From Candidatus Woesearchaeota archaeon (GTDB taxonomy: Archaea > Nanobdellota > Nanobdellia > Woesearchaeales > GW2011-AR9), in NCBI GenBank assembly GCA_018696595.1, contig JABHQW010000003.1:128001-192000 (forward strand): a stretch of 64,000 bases of DNA, in the 5' to 3' direction. Positions 213 to 62,332 of the stretch are shown here, piece after piece (the stretch's first letter is position 1; each line of letters begins with the position of its first letter). The notes under the pieces were generated by a model, which worked only from the letters and a program-made list of their open reading frames with translations, searched no databases and had not been told where the DNA came from. A program made the translations under genes and the position numbers.

Positions 213-2543
213 TTACCCTTCAACCACCCAAACTTTAACAGTGAAAGGTTCTTGCTCAACAGGATCTTCAGTTACTAGAACTTCTCCAGCAGGAACGTTA
301 ACAATCCATTCTTTTGAAATTGAGTCACGGCCATCTGAAACTGTTAATTTAACTTTCTTCTTCCCACCACTAGTAAATGTTCTAGTAATTGTGTCTGTAC
401 CTTTAACTGTCTGCTGTCTTAATCCAAGATCCCATTCGTAAGTTAACTTGTCCCCATCTAAATCTTTAGCAACAACATGAAAAATTATTTCTTCACCAAC
501 CTGAGCAGTAGTTTCTTCTACAGGAATGTAATCTAGGATTTCAGGCACACGATTAGTATTCTTAATGATGACTTTAACAGGATGAACAACTTCAACTTCA
601 CCATCAGCGGCAACAAAACTTAACCACTGTTCTGTTTGTTCATCACTAAATCTTTTATTCAGATATGATGATCCAGCAACAAAATTACTCCACCAACCAT
701 CTGTTTTATTCATAACATAATTGTAACCGGGTTGCCATAAAAACACACCATCATTAAAAGATGCTCCAGGTGGAATGTTATCCAGTCTAATTTCTAACTC
801 ATCTTCAGAATCAGGATCAGACGCAGAAACAACAAACATAAACTGTTGGTTTTCATTAACCACTAAAACATCTTTCTTAATCTTCAAACTAGGTTCACGG
901 TTATTTTTAAGAACATCAATATCTACTGTCTGAGTGTTTCCAATCTTACCATCAGTTGCAGTAACAAAAACAACTTGTGTCCCCTCATCTTCATAATCAG
1001 TTTGCCATTCACCAGTTCGTTTCCCGGTAGGTTTACTATAATAAACATTAACGATATCACCATCAGGATCAATAGCTTCTGCAGTCAACTCAGCAAGTTC
1101 AGTTTCAGTAATAGTAACATCATCTAACTTACTAAACTCTGGCATTCTGTTAACATTGTAAACATACAAATCAACAGTTCCAACAGTACATAACTCTTTA
1201 CCACAAGCAGTTACTTCTAAAGGGACCATTCTTTTTTTCAAAAATAAATGTTCTAATCTTAACTTGTTCAAAACATTACTCCACCATTTACCGCTTCTTT
1301 TAATATAATCAAATGAAGGAGTCCATTCTAACACTTCTCCATCAAATTCTGCATCTGCTGGAAGGTTATGAATAGAAACTTTTACTTTGTCCCCATCAGG
1401 ATCAGAAGTCTCAACAGCCCAAGACATTTCTTCATTCTCATTAGCATATAATTTCTCAGGTAGAACCAAATCGGGAGTTCGATCAACATCAATAACTTTA
1501 ATTTCGACAACTCTTTTAATAATAAACTCGCCATCAGAAGCAGTAACATCTAATTTGTAAGTTCCTGCATCTTCGTAACCTGTTTGCCACTCTCCTTCAT
1601 CGTTCAAAGGAGTTTCAAAAGAATAACTTAAATCGTCTCCATCTTGATCTACATCAGGAAGATCTAAATAAGCGTTCTCTCCTTCTTTAACAGTTACAGG
1701 AAGAACAGTTAAATCTGGTTTTCTGTTTACATGTTCAACTTCAATGGTCCATTCTTTTTCTGTGTTAGAACTTCCATCACTAACAGTTAACTTTAAAGTA
1801 TGAGTTCCAGAAGAGTCAAAGTCAAAATAATACTTACCAGAAGATTCTTCGCCAATCGTTTCTTGATCTAATTGCCAAAGATAAGTTACTTCTTCTTTAT
1901 CATTATCTGTTGCTTGAACATAAAAAGATAGTTTCTCATCTTCTTTAACAGCAACAACTTTACCATCAGAAAAAGTGTCTACAATCTCAGGAGCTTGATT
2001 AGTGTTAAGCACATCTACCCCTACTCTAAAGTTTTGGTTAAATTCTCCATCACTAACTTTAAACTCGGCAACATAACTTCCAGCATTATTATATCCTGGA
2101 CTCCAGACACCATCTTTATCAAACGGTGCAGAAAAAACATAATTTAACGGGTCCCCATCAGGATCAGAGACCAAATCTTTCAAATCAATAATTTGTGTTT
2201 CTTTAACTGAAACTTTCTCTTCAGTTAAGTAAGGAGCTTGATTTTTATTTTCAATAACAATTTTTACAGTCTTAACTACTTGGTTAACACCATCAGAAAC
2301 AGTAACATCAACATCATACTCTCCAGCGTCATCATAACCAGTTTGCCATTCACCATTGTCATCTAAGGGGGTACTATAATAATAGAATAGCTTGTCTCCA
2401 TCGACATCTAAAGCTTCGGCTTTAACTTTCACTAAATCTGTTTCTTTAACAGTAAAAGTTTTAACAGCAGCAGTAGCAAAAGCTGTCAGTAAGAGTAATA
2501 CTAATAGTCCAGAGAGAATCAATGTTATTTTTTTGTTTACCAT
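213..2543 (-). CDS. Secreted surface protein with about 8 tandem cadherin-like/Ig-like (PKD-type) Ca2+-binding repeats
   Basis: N-terminal signal peptide; repeated V-x-E..DxDGD..Y..W.TGY.DAG.Y....SDG..N..P modules (DVDGD, DPDGD x3, DQDGD, DLDGD plus 2 degenerate). Confidence 0.8.
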   Translation of the reverse strand: MVNKKITLILSGLLVLLLLTAFATAAVKTFTVKETDLVKVKAEALDVDGDKLFYYYSTPLDDNGEWQTGYDDAGEYDVDVTVSDGVNQVVKTVKIVIENKNQAPYLTEEKVSVKETQIIDLKDLVSDPDGDPLNYVFSAPFDKDGVWSPGYNNAGSYVAEFKVSDGEFNQNFRVGVDVLNTNQAPEIVDTFSDGKVVAVKEDEKLSFYVQATDNDKEEVTYLWQLDQETIGEESSGKYYFDFDSSGTHTLKLTVSDGSSNTEKEWTIEVEHVNRKPDLTVLPVTVKEGENAYLDLPDVDQDGDDLSYSFETPLNDEGEWQTGYEDAGTYKLDVTASDGEFIIKRVVEIKVIDVDRTPDLVLPEKLYANENEEMSWAVETSDPDGDKVKVSIHNLPADAEFDGEVLEWTPSFDYIKRSGKWWSNVLNKLRLEHLFLKKRMVPLEVTACGKELCTVGTVDLYVYNVNRMPEFSKLDDVTITETELAELTAEAIDPDGDIVNVYYSKPTGKRTGEWQTDYEDEGTQVVFVTATDGKIGNTQTVDIDVLKNNREPSLKIKKDVLVVNENQQFMFVVSASDPDSEDELEIRLDNIPPGASFNDGVFLWQPGYNYVMNKTDGWWSNFVAGSSYLNKRFSDEQTEQWLSFVAADGEVEVVHPVKVIIKNTNRVPEILDYIPVEETTAQVGEEIIFHVVAKDLDGDKLTYEWDLGLRQQTVKGTDTITRTFTSGGKKKVKLTVSDGRDSISKEWIVNVPAGEVLVTEDPVEQEPFTVKVWVVEG

Positions 2544-2597
2544 TTTTTAGGTCAATTGTTTTTGATCAATATAAAAAAGTAAAAAAGTAAAAAAAAA

Positions 2598-3620
2598 TTA
2601 ATTTAAGGAAACATCAACGATTACTGGTGGCATGTTTACATCTTCTACGGTAACTGCAACTTTCTTAGTTACAGTGTCCTTACCATCATTGATAGTAATT
2701 ACAACAACATATTCACCATGATCAGTGTATCCAGTTTCCCAAACACCATCGCTACCAACAGGTTCGCTAATAGTAATAGTTAAGTCATCATTGTCTAGAT
2801 CGCTTACAACAGGTTTAACTTCAACAATTTCTCCTTCCTTAACTACAAGATCAACTAAGCCAGTAACTTCAGGTAATTCATTAACATCAGTAATAGTTAA
2901 CTTGAATACTTTTTCAGTTTCTAATTCACCATCAGAAGCTAATACTCTAACTTGGTATTCTCCTGCACTATTATGATCAGTAACTAAGTTTCCACTTTTT
3001 AACGGTTCACTAACAGTTACAGAAACAGCATCTCCGTTAGGATCTGATACTTTAGGTTCAAAGCTTACAGTGTCTCCTTCATCAACTAAAAGGTCTTTAA
3101 CACCTGTAACAACAGGAGCAACGTTAACTCTTTCTACAACAATTTTAATTTTCTTTTCAGTTGTTAATTTTCCATCAGTTGCAGTAATAGTAATAACATA
3201 CTCACCAGCGTCTCCGTAATTGGTTTGCCATTCGCCTTCCTTGTTTAAAGGCTTACTAAATGTATGAGTTACAACATCCTGATCTGGGTCTGTTACTTTA
3301 ACATTTAAGTTTACTAACTCGTTCTCTTTAACGTAAACTGCATCCATGTCTGATTCATAAACATCAACATTTTCAGGTTCTTCGGTAAGTTCAGGCAAGA
3401 TTATTTCTTCCTCAACACTATTAACTTCTTCTTCAACTTCTTCCATAGCTTCTTCTTCTAAATTTAATTCATTCTCAATTTGAGCGATCTCATCAATTAA
3501 GCTAAGATCTTCTGCAGCAACATCATCTGCTGGAATATCATACGCCTTATAATCTAAACATCCTACTAAGAATACAAACATAACTAAAACTGTTAAACTC
3601 ACCATAACTTTTTTTATCAT
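2598..3620 (-). CDS. Lipoprotein with acidic linker and 3 cadherin-like/Ig-like repeats; paralog of 213..2543
   Basis: Lipobox-like FLVGC; Glu-rich linker; repeats DPDQD/DPNGD/DLDND with YGDAGEY..ITATDG; GAGGGG SD upstream. Confidence 0.8.
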   Translation of the reverse strand: MIKKVMVSLTVLVMFVFLVGCLDYKAYDIPADDVAAEDLSLIDEIAQIENELNLEEEAMEEVEEEVNSVEEEIILPELTEEPENVDVYESDMDAVYVKENELVNLNVKVTDPDQDVVTHTFSKPLNKEGEWQTNYGDAGEYVITITATDGKLTTEKKIKIVVERVNVAPVVTGVKDLLVDEGDTVSFEPKVSDPNGDAVSVTVSEPLKSGNLVTDHNSAGEYQVRVLASDGELETEKVFKLTITDVNELPEVTGLVDLVVKEGEIVEVKPVVSDLDNDDLTITISEPVGSDGVWETGYTDHGEYVVVITINDGKDTVTKKVAVTVEDVNMPPVIVDVSLN

Positions 3621-3770
3621 TTTAAACTTCCCCCTCTTAAAGACTTCAACAAATATGAGCCTCTTTTCTCGAATTGAGTATTTTAGAATGACAACTCGTA
3701 TTTAAAGATTTATACACAGCAATGTATATTGTAGAGAGTTTATTGTAAGAAAAATGTGGCCCCACCGAGA

Positions 3771-3854
3771 CTTTCATAACAGTTCCGCTTTTTCGCAGTG
3801 CGTTGGGCTTTATGTCCAACCCGCTCTTGCGTTTCAAATGAGCGTAACCATTTG
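3771..3854 (-). other. 84-nt tRNA intron in the T-loop (position 59/60)
   Basis: Central 4-bp helix UUCA(54-57)/UGAA (intron end), 3-nt bulges AA^C and AG^U, inner stem AAUGGUU/AACUGUU. Confidence 0.85.
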
Positions 3855-3876
3855 TTTGAACTCGGGACCACCCGAT

Positions 3877-3898
3877 TTCTTCCTGAACTAAATTCAGA
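3877..3898 (-). other. 22-nt tRNA intron at canonical position 37/38
   Basis: TCTGAATTTAGTTCAGGAAGAA; inner hairpin CTGAAT/GTTCAG in bulge-helix-bulge register; central helix has 2 Watson-Crick pairs plus a tandem GA/AG mismatch. Confidence 0.88.
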
Positions 3899-4116
3899 TA
3901 TCAGTCGGGCACTCTACCAAACTAAGCCATGGGGCCAATAGCCTGTTAAAATTAGAGCTCATTTTTAAAGGTTTTGTTTAATGTTTCTCTATTTGATCAC
4001 AGGATATAAGCCAAGATCAATTTCTCTTCAAAGTAGTACTGAGACAAATCAATAAAAAGTAGTAAAACAGTTTTTCACTTCCAGAATGGTATCAGGTTAG
4101 AGAATATATTTTCAAA

Positions 4117-4333: not shown

Positions 4334-5143
4334 TTATTTTAATTCTCGATGATAAAATTCTCTAGCCTGTTCAATAGAATGTTCTAAAGTCCCACCAACG
4401 TCCATACTAACTAATTCAACACCTTTGCGTTTAAACACTTCTCTGAAATCTGGACTATCATATTGTTTTTTCAACTTCAACTGAAATTCAAGATTCTCAA
4501 ATTCACAATCATCATCCTTTTCTCTACATTCCAATCTTCTCATAACTTCAGAAACATCTTTAATCGTAGGAATTACTAAAAAGTCCATAGGATGTTCGTA
4601 ACAAAAAGCATTTCCAGGTAATTGCAAAATTTCTTCCATACTAAAATCTCTTCCCAAATCTAAAGCCATTTGTCTTTGATAAACAATACTTGTTGAAAGA
4701 GATCTACTTTGATAAACATCAATACCTGCTTCTAAAATAGGAAGTAATAATTGTTCATATAAAATACGGCGATCTAATGCATAACCATCTGCGACCGCTT
4801 CAGGAGAATAAGTTATACCATTCTTTGCAATTAAATCATCACGAACAACTGCACCAATTCCAACAAATGTTGGTTCAGAAGTAACAATTACATCATACTT
4901 GCCAATAATTTTTTTTGGATCAGGATGGAAGCCAATTACTTTTTCCCAAGAAGGCACTTTTAAACCAACGTAACCCAATAATTTTGAAAGAATAGGATAT
5001 TTGTTTGTCTTCTTGCCCCAGAACTGATCAACATTAAAAACTTTTTTACCCTCTTTAATGGCTTCTTCTACTAAGGTGTCAATGATAACACCTTTACCAC
5101 ATCCATCTAAACCATCAACAACTATGAATCTACCTCTCGCCAT
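4334..5143 (-). CDS. tmk: Thymidylate (dTMP) kinase
   Basis: RGRFIVVDGLDGCGKG P-loop; SEPT; DR and SRSLSTSIVYQ motifs; FENLEFQLKL lid region. Confidence 0.85.
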   Translation of the reverse strand: MARGRFIVVDGLDGCGKGVIIDTLVEEAIKEGKKVFNVDQFWGKKTNKYPILSKLLGYVGLKVPSWEKVIGFHPDPKKIIGKYDVIVTSEPTFVGIGAVVRDDLIAKNGITYSPEAVADGYALDRRILYEQLLLPILEAGIDVYQSRSLSTSIVYQRQMALDLGRDFSMEEILQLPGNAFCYEHPMDFLVIPTIKDVSEVMRRLECREKDDDCEFENLEFQLKLKKQYDSPDFREVFKRKGVELVSMDVGGTLEHSIEQAREFYHRELK

Positions 5144-5193
5144 AAAAAAATGAAATCTAAACTAATTAATAAATACATCTATACTGAAAGAGT

Positions 5194-6354
5194 TCAATCA
5201 AAAAACTTAACATCCCTCAATTCTTCAGGTAAATGTTCCTGCTTGAAACTTTTCTTCTCCTCATCACTTAAGTCATGATAATATTTATAGTCTTTACCCC
5301 AACCTTGATCTTTCAAAAAAGAGGTTTCTGCATTCTTAAGATGGATTGGAACATCTAGGTTTCCAGTTTCTCTAATAGTTTGTTTAACCTTATTTACAGC
5401 AACATAAACTTTATTATTTTTCTCAGCCGAAGCAAGATAAACAATTAACTGGGCCAGAATAACTTCACTTTCTGGTAAACCAATAACTTCATGAGATTGA
5501 AAACATTTAATAGCAAATTCTAAAGCTTTGTTGTCAGCAACACCAATATCTTCAGAAGCAAACCTGATTAAACGTCTAAATACATACTTAGGATCTTCGC
5601 CACCGTTTAACATTCTAAAAGCCCAGTATAAGGCTGCATCCACATCACTATCACGTAAAGATTTGTGTAAGGCTGAAATAGTATTATAATGCCATTCCTG
5701 ATCATAAAAAACATTTTTATTAAGTAATTTCTTTGCTTCTTCTAAAGTCAAATTTTCTTTTTTGGATAAAAATTCTAAACTGTTCAAAGATTTTCTTAAA
5801 TCTCCATCTGAAATGGTACAAATGAAATCTATAATTTCTTCTTTAATCTCAATCTTTTCATTCTGACAAACATTAAGCAAATACTTCTTAATTTCCAATG
5901 GAGGAATCTTTTCAAACTTAAACACTTTTACTCTAGAAAGTAAAGCATTATTAACTTCAAAAGCTGGATTCTCTGTAGTGGCGCCGATTAAAGTCACTGT
6001 ACCTTTTTCTACATGTGGTAATAAATAATCTTGCTGCATTTTGTTAAAACGATGAATTTCATCAACAAAGAGAATGGTTTTTACTCTTGACAATAAGAAT
6101 AAATTCCTAGCTTTCTCTACATGTTCTCTTAAATCCTTTACTCCGCTAGTAACTGCACTGAGTTCAATAAAATTAAGATCAAGAACGTTGGAAATAATTT
6201 TTGCTAAAGTTGTTTTACCAGTTCCTGGAGGACCCCAGAAAAGCATGGAGAAAATATTGCTATTGTTGATATAATCTTTAAGAACAATATTCTCTGAAGT
6301 GAAAACAAAATTGTCCATCTCTTTTGGTCTGACTCGATGTGCTAACGGTTCCAT
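5194..6354 (-). CDS. rarA: Replication-associated recombination protein A (RarA/MgsA, AAA+)
   Basis: PLAHRVRP start; WGPPGTGKTT; FVDEIHRFNKMQQD; GATTENP; SALHKSLRDSD; ASEDIG; GLPE. Confidence 0.93.
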   Translation of the reverse strand: MEPLAHRVRPKEMDNFVFTSENIVLKDYINNSNIFSMLFWGPPGTGKTTLAKIISNVLDLNFIELSAVTSGVKDLREHVEKARNLFLLSRVKTILFVDEIHRFNKMQQDYLLPHVEKGTVTLIGATTENPAFEVNNALLSRVKVFKFEKIPPLEIKKYLLNVCQNEKIEIKEEIIDFICTISDGDLRKSLNSLEFLSKKENLTLEEAKKLLNKNVFYDQEWHYNTISALHKSLRDSDVDAALYWAFRMLNGGEDPKYVFRRLIRFASEDIGVADNKALEFAIKCFQSHEVIGLPESEVILAQLIVYLASAEKNNKVYVAVNKVKQTIRETGNLDVPIHLKNAETSFLKDQGWGKDYKYYHDLSDEEKKSFKQEHLPEELRDVKFFD

Positions 6355-6447
6355 ATCAACCCAGGAGTTTAAGCTTTTATTAAGATTTTCGTTATTGTGG
6401 TATTTATTATGAAAAGATTTATATATTATAGCCCGCTATAGTGCACT

Positions 6448-6666
6448 ATGGTAACAACAATTCAGATTAGTGAAGATTTGCAACAAGAATTAGCAAATAG
6501 AAAAATGTTTGCTAAAGAAACTTATGAAGATGTAATTTGGGACTTAATAGAAGATACTAAGGAACTTTCTGAAGAAACTAAAAGGAACATCAAAATTGCT
6601 GAACAACAAATTAAAGAAGGCAAGACAGTTAGCTTAGAAGAAGTTAAAAAGAAGTTGAGATTATAA
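6448..6666 (+). CDS. Archaeal RHH-type antitoxin (RelB-like)
   Basis: TTIQIS beta-strand start, ETYEDVI, and IKEGKTVSLEEVKKKL tail; directly upstream of RelE. Confidence 0.75.
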   Translation: MVTTIQISEDLQQELANRKMFAKETYEDVIWDLIEDTKELSEETKRNIKIAEQQIKEGKTVSLEEVKKKLRL

Positions 6667-6667
6667 G

Positions 6668-6919
6668 ATGTATAAAGTTGAATTGTCAAAAACAGCCGAA
6701 AAACAAATCCATAAACTAAGTAAAGATCTTCAAAAAAGAGTTATACTTACTTTGAATAGAATAAAAGTTAGACCTTATGCTTATGTTAAAAAGCTTGTTA
6801 GTTCACCCTATTTCTCATTAAGATTTGGTGATTATAGAGTAATTTTAAATATTCAAGACAATAAACTAATAATCTTTGTAATAGAACTTGGCCACAGAAG
6901 AAATATTTATAAGAAGTAA
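6668..6919 (+). CDS. relE: RelE/ParE-family toxin (ribosome-dependent mRNA interferase)
   Basis: MYKVELSKTAEKQIHKL...LRFGDYRVI...VIELGHRRNIYK, a RelE signature. Confidence 0.88.
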   Translation: MYKVELSKTAEKQIHKLSKDLQKRVILTLNRIKVRPYAYVKKLVSSPYFSLRFGDYRVILNIQDNKLIIFVIELGHRRNIYKK

Positions 6920-6935
6920 CTAATTCTCAAACAAC

Positions 6936-7493
6936 ATGAACAAAATAATTTGTTTAGTTGGAATGTCAGGAAGCGGGAAAAGTGTAGTGGCAGATGAACT
7001 TGTTAGAAACGGTTTTGAGTTCGCTCGTTTTGGTCAAATCACATTAGATATTGTTAAAGAAAGAGGCCTAGAACCTTCTGAAGAAAATGAAAGACCCATC
7101 AGAGAAGAAATGAGAAAAGAACACGGCATGGGCGCTTATGCAACATTAAACATTCCTAAATTTGATAAACTGTTAGAGAAAGCAAACTTGGTTGCTGATG
7201 GACTTTATTCTTGGACAGAATACAAAATTCTTAAAGATTATTACAAAGACCGACTAACAGTTGTTGCAGTTTTAACACCACCTGAAACAAGGTATGCAAG
7301 ATTGGCAGGAAGAACAGAAGTGGATGAAAAGATGCGTAACCGACCAGCAACAAGACAACAAGCTATCGCTCGTGACTATGCAGAAATCGAAAACATTGAG
7401 AAAGGCGGCCCAATCGCTATGGCAGATTATTATATTCTAAACGTAACTACAGAAGAAGATGTTATTAAAGAAGCAAGAAAGTTGTTGGAGTGA
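6936..7493 (+). CDS. P-loop nucleotide kinase (dephospho-CoA kinase-like/UPF0200 family)
   Basis: VGMSGSGKS Walker A; DGLYSWTEY; RDYAEIE..GGPIAMADYYILN. Confidence 0.75.
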   Translation: MNKIICLVGMSGSGKSVVADELVRNGFEFARFGQITLDIVKERGLEPSEENERPIREEMRKEHGMGAYATLNIPKFDKLLEKANLVADGLYSWTEYKILKDYYKDRLTVVAVLTPPETRYARLAGRTEVDEKMRNRPATRQQAIARDYAEIENIEKGGPIAMADYYILNVTTEEDVIKEARKLLE

Positions 7494-7568
7494 TTAGGGG
7501 TATACATCACCACAATACAACCTTTCTATTATAACAATCAATTTAAGTAAAGCAATCATTCTACAAAC

Positions 7569-8579
7569 ATGATAATCGGCATTACAGGGCTAGATGGTTC
7601 AGGAAAATCTCAAGTTGCAGAATTACTTAAACAAAGCGGTTTCTTTAAGGTTACATTCTCAGAAATTCTTGCAGAAGAGTTAAAGAAAAAGAAAAGGAAA
7701 GTTACTAAAGAAGGTTTAATTACAATCGGTAACGAACTTAGGGAAAAGTTTGGCCCAAAGATTCTAGCTAGATTAGCATTACACCGAGTTAAGGATGGAG
7801 AAAATTATGTTTTTGTTTCCATGAGGAATCCTGCTGAAGTAGAACTATTACAATCAAGACACGATTTCTTATTAGTTAATATTAATGCTCCAGATAAAGT
7901 TCGATTAAGAAGAATTATGAGAAAGAGATTAGAATCAAGTCCTAAATCATTAAAAGAATTAAGAAGAATGGACGCTTTAGAAAGTAGTTCTGATCCCAAG
8001 AAACAACAGCTACATAAAGTAACTAAGATGGCCCGGGCAGTTATTAAAAATGATTCTAGTGAAGAGAAACTTAAACAAAAAGTTGAAAGAATGTTAAATG
8101 ATTGGATGTATAAGTTACAAGATCATCGCCCAACATGGGATTATTATTTCATGAACATTGCTGAAACAGTTAAATCAAGATCAAGTTGTATGTCTCCAAA
8201 AAAAGGAGCACTAATTGTTAAAGATAAACAAATTCTTTCTACTGGATATAATGGTACACCAAGAGGAGTTAGTCATTGTACTGCAGGAGCATGTAAGAGA
8301 TGTACATTAAGACATTCTGGGAAAATTAAATCTGCAGATTACACTTCTGCAATCTGTATTTGTGCTCATGCCGAAGAAAATGCAATTGTTCAAGCTGCAA
8401 ATACAGGAGTTTCTACAAAAGGAGCTACAATTTATACCACTTTTACTCCCTGTAACATGTGTGCAAGAATGATTATTAATGCAGGCATTAAAGAAGTGGT
8501 TGCCAAAGTCACTTATCCAGATGATGTTGGCACAAGATTGTTAAAAGATGCTGGTGTTAAATTAAGAGTATTGAGGTAA
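7569..8579 (+). CDS. Fusion of P-loop NMP-kinase-like domain and dCMP deaminase
   Basis: N-terminal GITGLDGSGKS; C-terminal RPTWDYYFM..A...RS.C, STGYNGTP, Zn motifs HAEEN and PCNMC. Confidence 0.88.
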   Translation: MIIGITGLDGSGKSQVAELLKQSGFFKVTFSEILAEELKKKKRKVTKEGLITIGNELREKFGPKILARLALHRVKDGENYVFVSMRNPAEVELLQSRHDFLLVNINAPDKVRLRRIMRKRLESSPKSLKELRRMDALESSSDPKKQQLHKVTKMARAVIKNDSSEEKLKQKVERMLNDWMYKLQDHRPTWDYYFMNIAETVKSRSSCMSPKKGALIVKDKQILSTGYNGTPRGVSHCTAGACKRCTLRHSGKIKSADYTSAICICAHAEENAIVQAANTGVSTKGATIYTTFTPCNMCARMIINAGIKEVVAKVTYPDDVGTRLLKDAGVKLRVLR

Positions 8580-60527: not shown

Positions 60528-60854
60528 ATGTTTTGTAAAACCTGCGGCTCTTTACTAAGACCAAAAACTACTCCTTACGGAAAATGGATGGCTTGCCCTA
60601 ATGGGCATTCTCAACCAAAACTAAATCAAGAAGACACTAAACTTCAAACCAAAAACACAAACGAAGGAAAATTATTAGAAGTTAATCTAGGAGAGAACCC
60701 CTTATCTGTGCATGACCATATCTGTCCAAGATGTGGACATAACAAAGCAGAACTGATTGAAATTAGTGCAAACTATTCTGACGAAGATAACATTTACAGA
60801 ATGAAATGTGGCAAATGCAGTTTTGTTGTCCAGTTAGAAGGTAAGACCACTTAA
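60528..60854 (+). CDS. tfs: Transcription factor S / RpoM-like two-zinc-ribbon protein
   Basis: MFCKTCGSLL; C-terminal CPRC-x24-CGKC with acidic hairpin SDE. Confidence 0.78.
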   Translation: MFCKTCGSLLRPKTTPYGKWMACPNGHSQPKLNQEDTKLQTKNTNEGKLLEVNLGENPLSVHDHICPRCGHNKAELIEISANYSDEDNIYRMKCGKCSFVVQLEGKTT

Positions 60855-62332
60855 CCTTTAACATTACCAATTGGAACCAACTTAACAACTTTCTTAGCAA
60901 TACCTAACTGGCTAGATGTTTCCGCAACAATTTCTATATCTTTGTATGCACCACCTGCTTCTTCAGCAAGACCTCTCATGCTAACCCCATGAACATAAAT
61001 TCCTTTCTTCAACATGCTTTCTTGTAACTGAGCACCATCAAATTGTCTTTTAGCAGCAGCACGACTCATAATCCGACCAGCACCATGAGCAGTAGAAGCA
61101 AAAGTTTCTTGATCTGCTTTATCGTTACCAACCAAAATGTAAGATCCAGTTTCCATACTTCCTGGAAGAATTACTGGTTGACCAATTTCTTTATATCTGT
61201 CAGGCAACTCCTCATTCCGAGCAGGACCAAAAGCACGAGTTGCTCCTTTTCTATGTACAACTAACTCTTTCTCTTTACCATCAACAACATGTTTCTCTAA
61301 TTTAGCAATATTATGACAAACGTCATACACTAAATTAATCTCGGTTGATTCTCCAAAAATTTTCTTAAAAACTTCTCTAACTCTGTGCATGATAACTTGA
61401 CGATTAGCAAATGCCATGTTTGCAGCACAAGCCATAGCAGAATAGTAAGCTTTCCCATCAGGAGAATTCATTGGTGCACAAGCTAGTTCCTTATCCAGAA
61501 TATTAATCCCATATTGTTTCATTACTCCTAAAAATTTACGCATGTAATCTGTTCCAACTTGATGCCCTAAGCCCCGAGAACCACAATGAATCATTAAACA
61601 AACTTGCCCATCCCCAGTAATTCCCATAGTTTTAGCAATTTCCGGATCAAGAATATTTTCTTCTTTAACTTCTTGAATTTCTAAAAAATGATTACCCGAA
61701 CCAAGAGTTCCAACTTGATCAAATCCTCTTTTGATTGCTTTATCAGAAACATCTACAGGATTAGCGCCAGGTAATTTACCGCTACTTTCAGTATTAGCAA
61801 CATCATCTTCTGTAGCATAACCATTTTCTAAACACCACTGAGATCCTTTAATTAAAACTTGTTTGAATTCTTCTTTAGTAACTTTTACAAAACCAGTACA
61901 GCCAACACCTGCTGGAACTTCTTTGAAAAGTGTGTCAACTAATTCTTTAATTTTTGGTTTAACTTGATCAACAGTAAGGTTTGTGGTAACTAAACGAACT
62001 CCACAATTAATATCAAATCCAACACCGCCAGGAGAAATCACTCCACCTTCTTCTGGATCAAAAGCAGCTACGCCGCCAATGGGGAAACCGTATCCCCAAT
62101 GTCCGTCTGCCATACAAGCAGCATACTTTTGAATACCTGGAAGAGAAGCAACATTTGCCAGTTGATCAAAAACTCCACGATCCATTGAATCTAAAAGAAC
62201 TTTGTTAGCGTAAACTCTACCTGGAACATTCATCCCTTGTTTATATGAAGTAGGCAATTCCCAAATATTATCTTCAATTTTCTTTATACATTCTGGTGGA
62301 CCCATTTTAATTTCTTTTTTATGACCATTCAT
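60851..62332 (-). CDS. rtcB: RNA-splicing ligase RtcB
   Basis: DGHWGYGFPIGG, GFDINCG, GTLGSGNHFLE, HCGSRG, HN, HRKGAT, PGSM, HGAGR, EE..GAYKD. Confidence 0.96.
   Translation of the reverse strand: MNGHKKEIKMGPPECIKKIEDNIWELPTSYKQGMNVPGRVYANKVLLDSMDRGVFDQLANVASLPGIQKYAACMADGHWGYGFPIGGVAAFDPEEGGVISPGGVGFDINCGVRLVTTNLTVDQVKPKIKELVDTLFKEVPAGVGCTGFVKVTKEEFKQVLIKGSQWCLENGYATEDDVANTESSGKLPGANPVDVSDKAIKRGFDQVGTLGSGNHFLEIQEVKEENILDPEIAKTMGITGDGQVCLMIHCGSRGLGHQVGTDYMRKFLGVMKQYGINILDKELACAPMNSPDGKAYYSAMACAANMAFANRQVIMHRVREVFKKIFGESTEINLVYDVCHNIAKLEKHVVDGKEKELVVHRKGATRAFGPARNEELPDRYKEIGQPVILPGSMETGSYILVGNDKADQETFASTAHGAGRIMSRAAAKRQFDGAQLQESMLKKGIYVHGVSMRGLAEEAGGAYKDIEIVAETSSQLGIAKKVVKLVPIGNVKG

Follow-up and report, generated by a model that had tools for sequence, protein, structure and literature searches.

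A woesearchaeotal tRNA-Ile(GAU) gene with two predicted introns, one of which belongs to a structured and apparently mobile intron family

We analysed a 64,000-nt stretch of DNA from a Candidatus Woesearchaeota archaeon (GenBank assembly GCA_018696595.1, contig JABHQW010000003.1, positions 128,001 to 192,000, hereafter the window), which contains a doubly interrupted tRNA-Ile(GAU) gene at 3757..3936 on its minus strand. We consider it very probable that this gene is functional and the only tRNA-Ile(GAU) gene detectable in the genome, that its first intron is old, that its second intron was recently gained from a mobile intron family, and that the splicing endonuclease EndA and the RNA ligase RtcB remove both. 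The host is a small marine archaeon of the Woesearchaeota type within DPANN, with a genome (G000) of 1.19 Mb and 32% GC that is 97% complete in 8 contigs. Our reading builds on the gene and its junctions, the family membership of the second intron, the covariation of its stems, its patchy distribution and the genes for the splicing enzymes, each of which was observed in the sequences compared below.

Results

Gene structure and intron junctions

Read from 3936 to 3757, the 180-nt precursor starts with GGCCCCA and ends with UGGGGCC, followed by the discriminator A at 3757; CCA is not encoded, and the assignment is based on the cloverleaf and on orthology. The precursor comprises exon 1 (tRNA positions 1–37, 3899..3936), a 22-nt intron 1 at the canonical site 37/38 (3877..3898), exon 2 (positions 38–59, 3855..3876), an 84-nt intron 2 at site 59/60 of the T-loop (3771..3854) and exon 3 (positions 60–73, 3757..3770). 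We removed precursor bases 39–60 and 83–166 by script and obtained a 74-nt product with a perfect cloverleaf, the anticodon loop CUGAUAA and the T-loop UUCAAAU, which ARAGORN calls as tRNA-Ile(gat). A preliminary description of the window had proposed a tRNA-Ile(GAU) with introns of exactly these lengths and sites at this location; in silico splicing bears this out and places the gene on the minus strand.

ARAGORN called no tRNA when the 84-nt intron was retained. The unspliced gene escapes ARAGORN, both on the window and on the whole genome when introns are permitted, as well as the Rfam tRNA model at the gathering threshold and at E ≤ 10, as the preliminary description had anticipated for standard finders. 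It had further proposed a search for a second, uninterrupted Ile(GAU) gene: BLAST of the precursor against the 97%-complete genome found none, the sole relative being a gene for tRNA-Ile(UAU) that lies on a different contig. When additional GAU anticodon arms were sought under loose criteria, the 83 matches were mostly random and thus uninformative, so that the single-copy status is based on BLAST.

Orthologous Ile(GAU) genes with 5 (G007), 9 (G018) and 20 (G037) differences contain an intron at 37/38 only, of 23, 19 and 26 nt, respectively, and the orthologue of G020, with 8 differences in 73 positions, is intronless. In the latter, position 37 runs directly into 38 and position 59 directly into 60, which fixes both junctions without appeal to a splice motif. 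Homology of exon 1 with the G018 and G020 genes breaks off or resumes exactly at the exon boundary; exons 2 and 3 were delimited by in silico splicing and orthologue comparison. Among the orthologues, the acceptor, anticodon and T stems show paired compensatory changes, for example CCCGA/UCGGG versus CACGA/UCGUG and GGCCCCA/UGGGGCC versus GGCUCCA/UGGAGCC. With a match between orthologues far above chance, the locus is, by sequence comparison, a real and necessary gene of a known kind.

Splice motifs of the two introns

Intron 2 has a near-strict bulge-helix-bulge (BHB) motif. The T stem CCGAG/CUCGG is followed by the 3′ bulge AG↓U, the central helix UUCA/UGAA and the 5′ bulge AA↓C, and the inner helix continues with an A·A mismatch and 7 bp (AAUGGUU with AACUGUU). 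Two opposite 3-nt bulges, a 4-bp helix and outer helices, the elements of an hBHBh′ motif, are all present, and the central helix and 3-nt bulges are those given in the preliminary description.

Its count of two BHB introns applies to intron 1 in a relaxed form only. Here the geometry is correct, with a 7×7 internal loop flanked by the anticodon stem on one side and a 5–7 bp intron hairpin on the other, and the central helix consists of C32–G, U33–A, G34·A and A35·G, that is, two Watson–Crick pairs and a tandem G·A. In the orthologues, the 37/38 introns measure 19–26 nt; those of G007 and G037 have an AGAA tail in common, that of G018 ends in UGAA, and by reading the G007 intron adopts the same relaxed geometry. 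The relaxed 37/38 motif is conserved and, judging from these comparisons, evidently functional in this lineage. Intron 1, found also in other genera, is on the same grounds old.

Intron 2 belongs to a family with covarying stems and an invariant core

From its first base, intron 2 forms a hairpin H1 (CAAAUG, loop GUUACGCU, CAUUUG; 3835..3854), which is followed on the minus strand by a conserved linker ACGCAAG (3826..3832), a hairpin H2 (GUUGGAC, loop AUAAA, GCCCAAC; 3802..3820), a hairpin H3 (CUGC, loop GAAAAA, GCGG; 3785..3798) and a 3′ tail (3771..3784). The tail comprises a segment A″ (AACUGUUA), which pairs with the 5′ AAUGGUU to form the BHB inner helix, the UGAA of the central helix and the AG of the 3′ bulge.

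We aligned 36 copies of the family, gap-free across the core, to analyse covariation. The H1 stem CAAAUG/CAUUUG is replaced in other copies by CAGCUG/CAGCUG, CGAUUG/CGAUCG, CAACUG/CRGUUG or CGACUG/CRGUCG. The six pairs are about 99% paired, five of the six are changed on both sides, and 31 compensatory cells compare with 8.4 ± 2.1 in shuffled controls. If the partner is moved by one column, pairing falls from 86% to about 40%. Little or no variation is seen in the eight-base loop GUUACGCU and in the linker ACGCAAG, with alignment columns 27–32 invariant or at least 90% conserved. An invariant loop and linker beside covarying stems argue for selection on a folded single strand and not merely for young copies. 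H2 stems covary throughout the family (GUGGAAC/GUUCCAC, GUCCAGC/GCUGGAC and others) around a loop that is frequently AUAAA. RNAalifold, applied to 12 full-length members, recovered the T stem, the central helix, H1 and H2; in this alignment, the last pair of the central helix alternates between A–U and G–C in step with T-loop position 57.

The 3′ tail, often of the form CGCAA-YCA-…, can pair with the 5′ segment and with the first bases of the loop (UGGUU/AAYCA), with a mean of 5.65 consecutive pairs within a copy compared with 3.0 between stem classes. Sequence comparison indicates that the 5′ segment has two conserved, mutually exclusive partners, the H1 arm or the 3′ tail. For the Ile precursor, the calculated energies are −26.3 kcal/mol for the BHB conformer, −25.6 kcal/mol for the H1 conformer and −26.9 kcal/mol for the minimum free energy structure.

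These data modify the fold of three hairpins given in the preliminary description. GUUGGAC/GCCCAAC is supported by comparison, and CUGC/GCGG is lineage-specific, being shared with the tRNA-Thr copy of G016 alone and absent from three tRNA-Ala copies. CGCUC/GAGCG finds no comparative support, as CGCUC lies in the conserved loop and a change of a loop base is uncompensated. The best-supported hairpin, CAAAUG/CAUUUG, had been overlooked. The branched three-hairpin fold is the interior of the BHB conformer and represents one of two near-isoenergetic states.

We rejected a pseudoknot between CGCUC of the loop and a downstream GAGCG, for which loop changes are uncompensated; readings of the core as a T-loop mimic or as a K-turn were ruled out by reading the sequence. 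No Rfam family matched the intron core (window searched to E 10) or the stand-alone copies. By reading, 3771–3854 holds no RUGAUGA/CUGA pair of a box C/D sRNA, and Rfam gave no such hit down to E 10.

Distribution, host tRNAs and recent gain

We searched 401 genomes of the order (among them the unpublished G267, G230, G154 and G396, from which none of the loci analysed here is taken) with a 23-nt core pattern, GGTTACGC plus nine free bases plus ACGCAA, allowing at most one mismatch. The core occurs in 121 of the 401 genomes, or 117 of 397 without the four unpublished ones, with up to 19 copies each; a reversed control pattern gave 0–2 matches. With no mismatch allowed, it was found in none of 28 sampled genomes from other orders of the same class. 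Tails of the introns fit each host loop, ending in UGAA, CGAA or AGAA. At least 13 different anticodons are represented among the tRNAs that carry the core in their T-loop; site 59/60 accounts for 17 of the 23 solved cases and site 37/38 for 3. Searches in 40 relatives together with the intron-removing script gave, as hosts at 59/60, Ala(GGC) in all three genomes of this genus and, in other genomes, Thr(GGU), Gly(CCC), Val(GAC, CAC, UAC), Met(CAU), Glu(UUC), Gln(CUG), Ile(UAU), Ser(UGA) and Arg(CCU); those at 37/38 are Glu(CUC) and His(GUG).

The host genome contains two copies. The second resides as a 77-nt intron at 59/60 of tRNA-Ala(GGC) (G000:C6:257155-257296, minus strand; locus L019), in which G3·U70 is present. 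This gene lies on the same contig as the Ile gene. Over the first 61 nt, and together with the 5′ half of the T-arm, its intron is 90% identical to the Ile intron; the T stem is the same and the third hairpin is absent. By this similarity, the Ala copy is likely an intragenomic relative of the Ile copy. It also looks older, being common to all three genomes of the genus, while the Ile copy is known here only.

The Ile(GAU) genes of G007, G018, G020, G037 and G016 have an intact T-loop without intron 2, and because these five orthologues are empty we regard intron 2 as a recent gain. Those of G021 and G030 contain unrelated introns of 46 and 31 nt at 59/60. The pattern is reciprocal in G016, where tRNA-Thr(GGU) holds an 84-nt copy with 85% full-length identity and the Thr(GGU) gene of our genome has a 35-nt intron. 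Homologous introns in non-orthologous tRNAs, combined with patchy presence among orthologues, are the marks of a transposed intron family, and on sequence grounds both are found here.

We mapped the filled allele in four DNA metagenome runs. It is present in seawater contigs from independent studies, no contig in these runs joins 3770 to 3855 as an empty allele would, and many foreign contigs pile up at the intron core. One 35-kb contig of a related population (run X19) retains the Ile gene up to position 59 (12 differences) and diverges immediately beyond it, in window 3715–3855, where 150 unrelated letters replace 139 of the window; a close relative may here have another intron at 59/60. A further variant is the 139-nt family intron in tRNA-Ala(GGC) of G001, from the same genus (L007:1425-1563), which owes its length to a second small repeat, an A/T-rich double-hairpin element of about 60 nt, nested in the conserved H1 loop.

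Interrupted tRNA genes in the host genome

Standard tools reveal 13 (ARAGORN) or 15 (Rfam, above cut-off) tRNA genes. We report alongside them a targeted scan for T-arms, defined by a T stem, UUCR, a 4-bp central helix and a 3-nt bulge, which detected about 17 T-arms with a strict 59/60 BHB intron of 16–84 nt, each a candidate with respect to its whole tRNA. Small families of 59/60 introns in the genome measure about 35, 41–42 and 48 nt; the longest are those of Ile(GAU) with 84 nt, Ile(UAU) with 80 nt and Ala(GGC) with 77 nt. The preliminary description had placed multi-intron genes and non-canonical sites mainly in Thermoproteales and some ultrasmall archaea; within its own genome the two-intron Ile(GAU) gene is ordinary. 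Surveys of DPANN archaea describe heavy disruption of tRNA genes, in part undetected (PMC5829648).

The tRNA-Ile(UAU) gene (G000:C5:82010-82189, plus strand) has the acceptor stem of Ile(GAU), an intron of about 27 nt at 37/38 and an 80-nt intron at 59/60. The layout of the latter resembles the 84-nt intron, with a CAGUU/AACUG 5′ hairpin around an 8-nt loop AUUUCGCC, a strong second hairpin and a GCUCGC tail; the family core is absent. The UAU anticodon suggests decoding of AUA without the agmatidine route.

Splicing enzymes

One 207-amino-acid open reading frame (ORF) contains both EndA domains (G000:C7:39444-39935; locus L001:1474-2097, minus strand, from the same contig), and across the whole genome it provides the one PF01974 and the one PF02778 match at E ≤ 1; at this threshold, the genome holds neither a second EndA gene nor a β subunit, and the ORF is no tandem fusion. 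The closest solved relatives are the N. equitans α subunit (7e-39) and the M. jannaschii α4 enzyme (3e-35). In pairwise HMMER alignments, residues 38–207 align gap-free with residues 4–171 of the M. jannaschii structure 1A79, and the conserved motifs that surround the catalytic His and Lys are in register. At the inserts that N. equitans α and the ARMAN-2 enzyme have beside the catalytic His, the protein is shorter than either, by 6 residues in the case of N. equitans α. Broad-specificity EndA enzymes have published inserts of the types L1/CSL, L2/ASL and L3 (PMC5829648); pairwise alignments show none of these near the catalytic His or in the C-terminal region.

From a single subunit gene with N- and C-terminal domains we predict an α4-like EndA. 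The preliminary description had held that non-canonical sites need a broad-specificity EndA, a requirement not reflected in the enzyme typed here, which is colinear with the strict M. jannaschii α4 and lacks the N. equitans and ARMAN-2 inserts. α4 enzymes require a strict 3-4-3 motif (PMC3239211), and a strict enzyme should accept a near-strict hBHBh′ at whatever position, including 59/60. The strict 59/60 motifs fit this requirement, which may explain the retained complementarity of the 3′ tail; the relaxed intron 1 departs from it.

The N-terminal tail of EndA, 35 residues rich in Lys and Ser, has no counterpart in the enzymes of M. jannaschii and N. equitans. It is variable, the match in relatives beginning anywhere from residue 1 to 40, and could add RNA affinity. 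Many metagenome-assembled genomes with an EndA 70–85% identical are titled 'uncultured Methanosarcinales archaeon', the nearest named kin being Woesearchaeota or Nanoarchaeota, which makes label errors probable. RtcB is encoded in the window at 60854..62164 on the minus strand (PF01139, E 1e-168), as the preliminary description had noted, and is the only copy in the genome.

Copies outside intact tRNA genes

At five loci, the core lies between an orphaned 5′ gene fragment and the complete gene. The genes concerned are an ATP-synthase-D-like gene (L043), a triosephosphate-isomerase-like gene (L061), an ORF with two tandem units (L045), a tRNA gene (L044) and tRNA-His (L042). Duplications at such non-tRNA and fragment loci span 12–58 nt. 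In the three that were read, at two protein genes and one tRNA gene, they begin no more than about 3 nt from the start codon or from tRNA position 1. BHB candidates that would remove the element together with the duplicate at L043, L045 and L061 depend on wobble pairs and repeats, and such a removal is unproven.

In L061 (around 1400–1560, minus strand), the orphan copy reads GDWKMN, compared with the catalytic GNWKMN of the complete gene, and a TATA-like box upstream suggests a leaderless transcript. Stand-alone cores occupy the space between an Lrp/AsnC-type gene and the next gene in L033 (around 1400–1530, minus strand) and L035 (around 1480–1640, plus strand), the same intergenic place in two genomes of one family, and have a long third hairpin. 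A partial core is fused in tandem to a full core in L034 and L035.

Surroundings of the gene

A putative TATA-like box (TTTAAAAAT, 3961..3969, minus strand) lies 25–33 nt 5′ of tRNA position 1, and a T-run (TTTTTCTT, 3747..3754, minus strand) that begins 3 nt past the discriminator is the likely terminator; both were identified by eye. A sigma-70 promoter scan was set aside as evidence for a promoter, being irrelevant to archaea. The neighbourhood (window 213–3620, minus strand, and 4334–8579) encodes two secreted-looking Ig/PKD/cadherin-like repeat proteins of 776 and 340 amino acids, a thymidylate-kinase-like gene, an MgsA-type AAA+ ATPase, a small P-loop kinase and a P-loop kinase fused to a dCMP-deaminase domain.

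Discussion

Comparison with known systems

Among the 'transposing' tRNA introns of archaea, the 84-nt intron is a new and well-defined form. The closest parallel at the same site is ARMAN-2 (Ca. Micrarchaeum), whose pre-tRNA-Cys(GCA) contains a 13-nt intron at 59/60 and whose pre-tRNA-Pro(GGG) is interrupted at 53/54 and 59/60 (PMC3239211). Both are DPANN hosts with T-loop introns and multi-intron genes missed by standard finders. In ARMAN-2, however, the introns are short (13 nt in Cys), some of their motifs are relaxed (hBH), and a three-unit ε2 EndA with a specificity loop is present, whereas our intron is 84 nt long, structured and near-strict, and the genome has a single gene for an α4-like EndA without an insert. 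Compared with M. jannaschii α4 (PDB 1A79), to which it aligns without insertion (E 3e-35) and with matching catalytic motifs, this EndA has an extra tail of 35 residues and serves heavily interrupted tRNA genes, which is unexpected for a strict α4 enzyme (PMC3239211, PMC5829648).

Transposed tRNA introns were described in Thermoproteales (Fujishima et al. 2010, Mol Biol Evol 27:2233, as summarised in PMC4090602 and PMC10714607). Near-identical introns in non-orthologous tRNAs, canonical and non-canonical sites, and presence or absence among orthologues are features held in common with our family. The Thermoproteales are Crenarchaeota with another EndA type, and our host is a DPANN archaeon of the Woesearchaeota type. 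The long structured core with its H1 loop, linker, H2 loop and covarying stems, as well as its recurrence outside tRNA genes beside duplicated gene 5′ ends, distinguish the present family. A long, structured intron with conserved internal RNA is likewise known from euryarchaeal pre-tRNA-Trp, where it encodes a box C/D RNA with a function of its own (cited in PMC4090602); that intron sits at 37/38, unlike ours at 59/60, for which reading gave no C/D box pair and Rfam no snoRNA match.

The tRNA-Thr(GGU) disruption locus of Caldiarchaeum subterraneum (Sugahara et al. 2012, PMC3293823) also ties intron gain and an orphaned 5′ tRNA fragment to a mobile element, in an order like that of L044 and the other fragment loci. 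The Caldiarchaeum element is 1.8 kb long and encodes a recombinase, whereas the elements here are non-coding and span 50–100 nt, and the Ile locus is without an orphan fragment.

Alternative explanations

We considered four alternatives to the reading of a functional gene with a recently gained mobile intron. The first assigns intron 2 a function for the host, either as an excised and probably circular 84-nt small or protein-binding RNA or as a pairing switch that times or regulates tRNA-Ile maturation. The near-invariant loop and linker with their covarying stems would then reflect purifying selection on an RNA or single-strand fold, the near-isoenergetic conformers and the family-wide tracking of the 5′ segment by both pairings would suit a switch, and circular tRNA introns are known in archaea (PMC3326292). 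Conservation of the core and covariation of the stems do imply selection on the intron itself, but selfish mobility fits equally. The patchiness of the family, which is absent from 70% of the sampled genomes of the order and from five orthologous Ile genes, together with 0–19 copies per genome and host tRNAs that vary by genome, is better explained by a selfish element. A switch would be unneeded where a separate segment builds the inner helix (L040), and the core matches no Rfam family. We therefore regard a host function as doubtful.

The second alternative places the element at the level of DNA, as a repeat of the REP, PATE or miniature inverted-repeat transposable element (MITE) type that is handled in trans by a Y1 transposase (IS200/IS605- or RAYT-type) or another nuclease and that survives in tRNA genes just where it is spliceable. 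Elements of the family are indeed hairpin-led, non-coding and multi-copy; identical copies occur at contig ends in high-copy genomes, and copies lie outside tRNAs, between and in front of genes. Y1_Tnp is found in 7 of 9 high-copy compared with 1 of 5 zero-copy genomes, a suggestive association from a tiny sample in which kinship and general mobilome load are uncontrolled. Our genome, however, has two copies and no Y1_Tnp match. IS200/IS605 elements insert without duplicating their target, whereas duplications of 12–58 nt border the non-tRNA copies, and the 3′ tail is matched to the host loop (UGAA, CGAA, AGAA), unlike a fixed DNA end. In G159, an IS200/IS605-like element (L183, around 1300–2020, minus strand), which has a Y1 transposase and terminal hairpins of its own, immediately precedes a tRNA gene that contains a family intron in its D-loop region. 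The terminal hairpins of this element are unrelated to the adjacent core copy, which sits in the intron of the neighbouring tRNA. Taken together, a DNA-level repeat is unlikely.

Third, the element could be what is left, without coding capacity, of a homing-endonuclease cassette that inserts into tRNA genes and supplies a replacement copy, with both the introns and the duplications as its footprints. The order of fragment, element and complete gene at L043, L044, L045 and L061 resembles such an event, and a comparable arrangement bearing a recombinase is known from Caldiarchaeum tRNA-Thr (PMC3293823). By Pfam, however, ten ORFs flanking core copies include neither a LAGLIDADG nor any other endonuclease, the Ile gene is bordered by genes for Ig/PKD-domain proteins and by one that resembles thymidylate kinase, and most copies are exact BHB introns without a duplicated fragment, so that a homing remnant appears improbable. 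Finally, a pseudo-tRNA or integration scar, in which the 84-nt insert inactivated the gene and another gene decodes isoleucine, would account for the rejection of the locus by standard finders and has a parallel in the orphaned gene fragments that same-core elements leave elsewhere, but it is hardly credible given that BLAST found no other Ile(GAU) gene in the genome, that comparison with intronless orthologues shows the exons to be conserved and to differ by compensatory changes, that both inserts have BHB geometry and their removal restores the loops exactly, and that about 17 other T-arms of the genome are arranged alike in the presence of EndA and RtcB.

Several points weigh against our own reading. 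The central helix of intron 1 has only two Watson–Crick pairs, and by pairwise alignment EndA is without the published specificity inserts although this motif is relaxed; either EndA is more tolerant than its type or some factor is missing. We infer actual splicing, its order and the formation of a circle from the sequences, and the designation as the only detectable Ile(GAU) gene rests on similarity searches in an assembly of 8 contigs. Our tRNA census, made with a SPLITS-like script that covered 60% of the genome and recovered few genes, is incomplete and overlooks genes with three introns or relaxed motifs. The same-genus genomes G001 and G002, which are 81–84% complete, gave no tRNA-Ile match, so that the gain is undatable within the genus. 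Lastly, the enzyme for mobility was not found among the candidates checked: a reverse transcriptase is absent from our genome and present in 1 of 5 high-copy genomes, and of at least 120 pattern matches in viral contigs, a single one among those listed has the hairpin and looks like chance, which gives no sign of a viral carrier among these matches.

A model for splicing and spread

The family architecture can be summarized as a 5′ hairpin with the loop GUUACGCU, the linker ACGCAAG, a second hairpin with the loop AUAAA, a stretch that varies and a 3′ tail able to pair with the 5′ segment. In the splicing reaction that we envisage, the 3′ tail would pair with the 5′ segment and open the 5′ hairpin, thereby generating the 3-4-3 BHB; the single α4-like EndA would cut both bulges; and RtcB would join the exons and most likely circularise the intron. 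The T-loop may be a universal landing site and a hot spot for the family, since a BHB at 59/60 takes from the host just the T stem and the near-universal UUCR, with YGAA and the inner helix contributed by the intron itself.

Both the mechanism of intron spread and the role of the conserved core are matters that we infer. We tentatively propose, as a possibility that we do not rate as probable, that the conserved H1-linker-H2 module is the cis part of a non-autonomous mobile BHB intron, an 'intron MITE'. The 5′ segment would toggle between H1, as the recognition or mobility state, and pairing with the 3′ tail, as the BHB splicing state. The T-loop would act as a universal dock, the intron carrying all that a BHB needs apart from the T arm. 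Copies flanked by duplications would be by-products of an insertion defined by RNA ends, for example where the 5′ ends of transcripts are ligated or prompt template switching, with recombination as the next step.

Implications

Annotation pipelines would list this genome, and many similar ones, as being without tRNA-Ile. That an apparently plain α4-type EndA serves tRNA genes so heavily interrupted also provides a test of the published link between EndA inserts and tRNA disruption. The route by which BHB introns reach new tRNA genes has been an open question ever since their 'transposition' in Thermoproteales was described in 2010 (PMC4090602). The Ile(GAU) gene offers a dated and clean example, in which an essential single-copy tRNA is interrupted, five T-loops are empty in other genera and a donor-like copy resides in the same genome. 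The family core is recognisable and covarying and can be traced across more than 100 genomes and several kinds of insertion sites. If the proposed mobile-intron module is real, it would provide a sequence-defined handle on the movement of archaeal introns.

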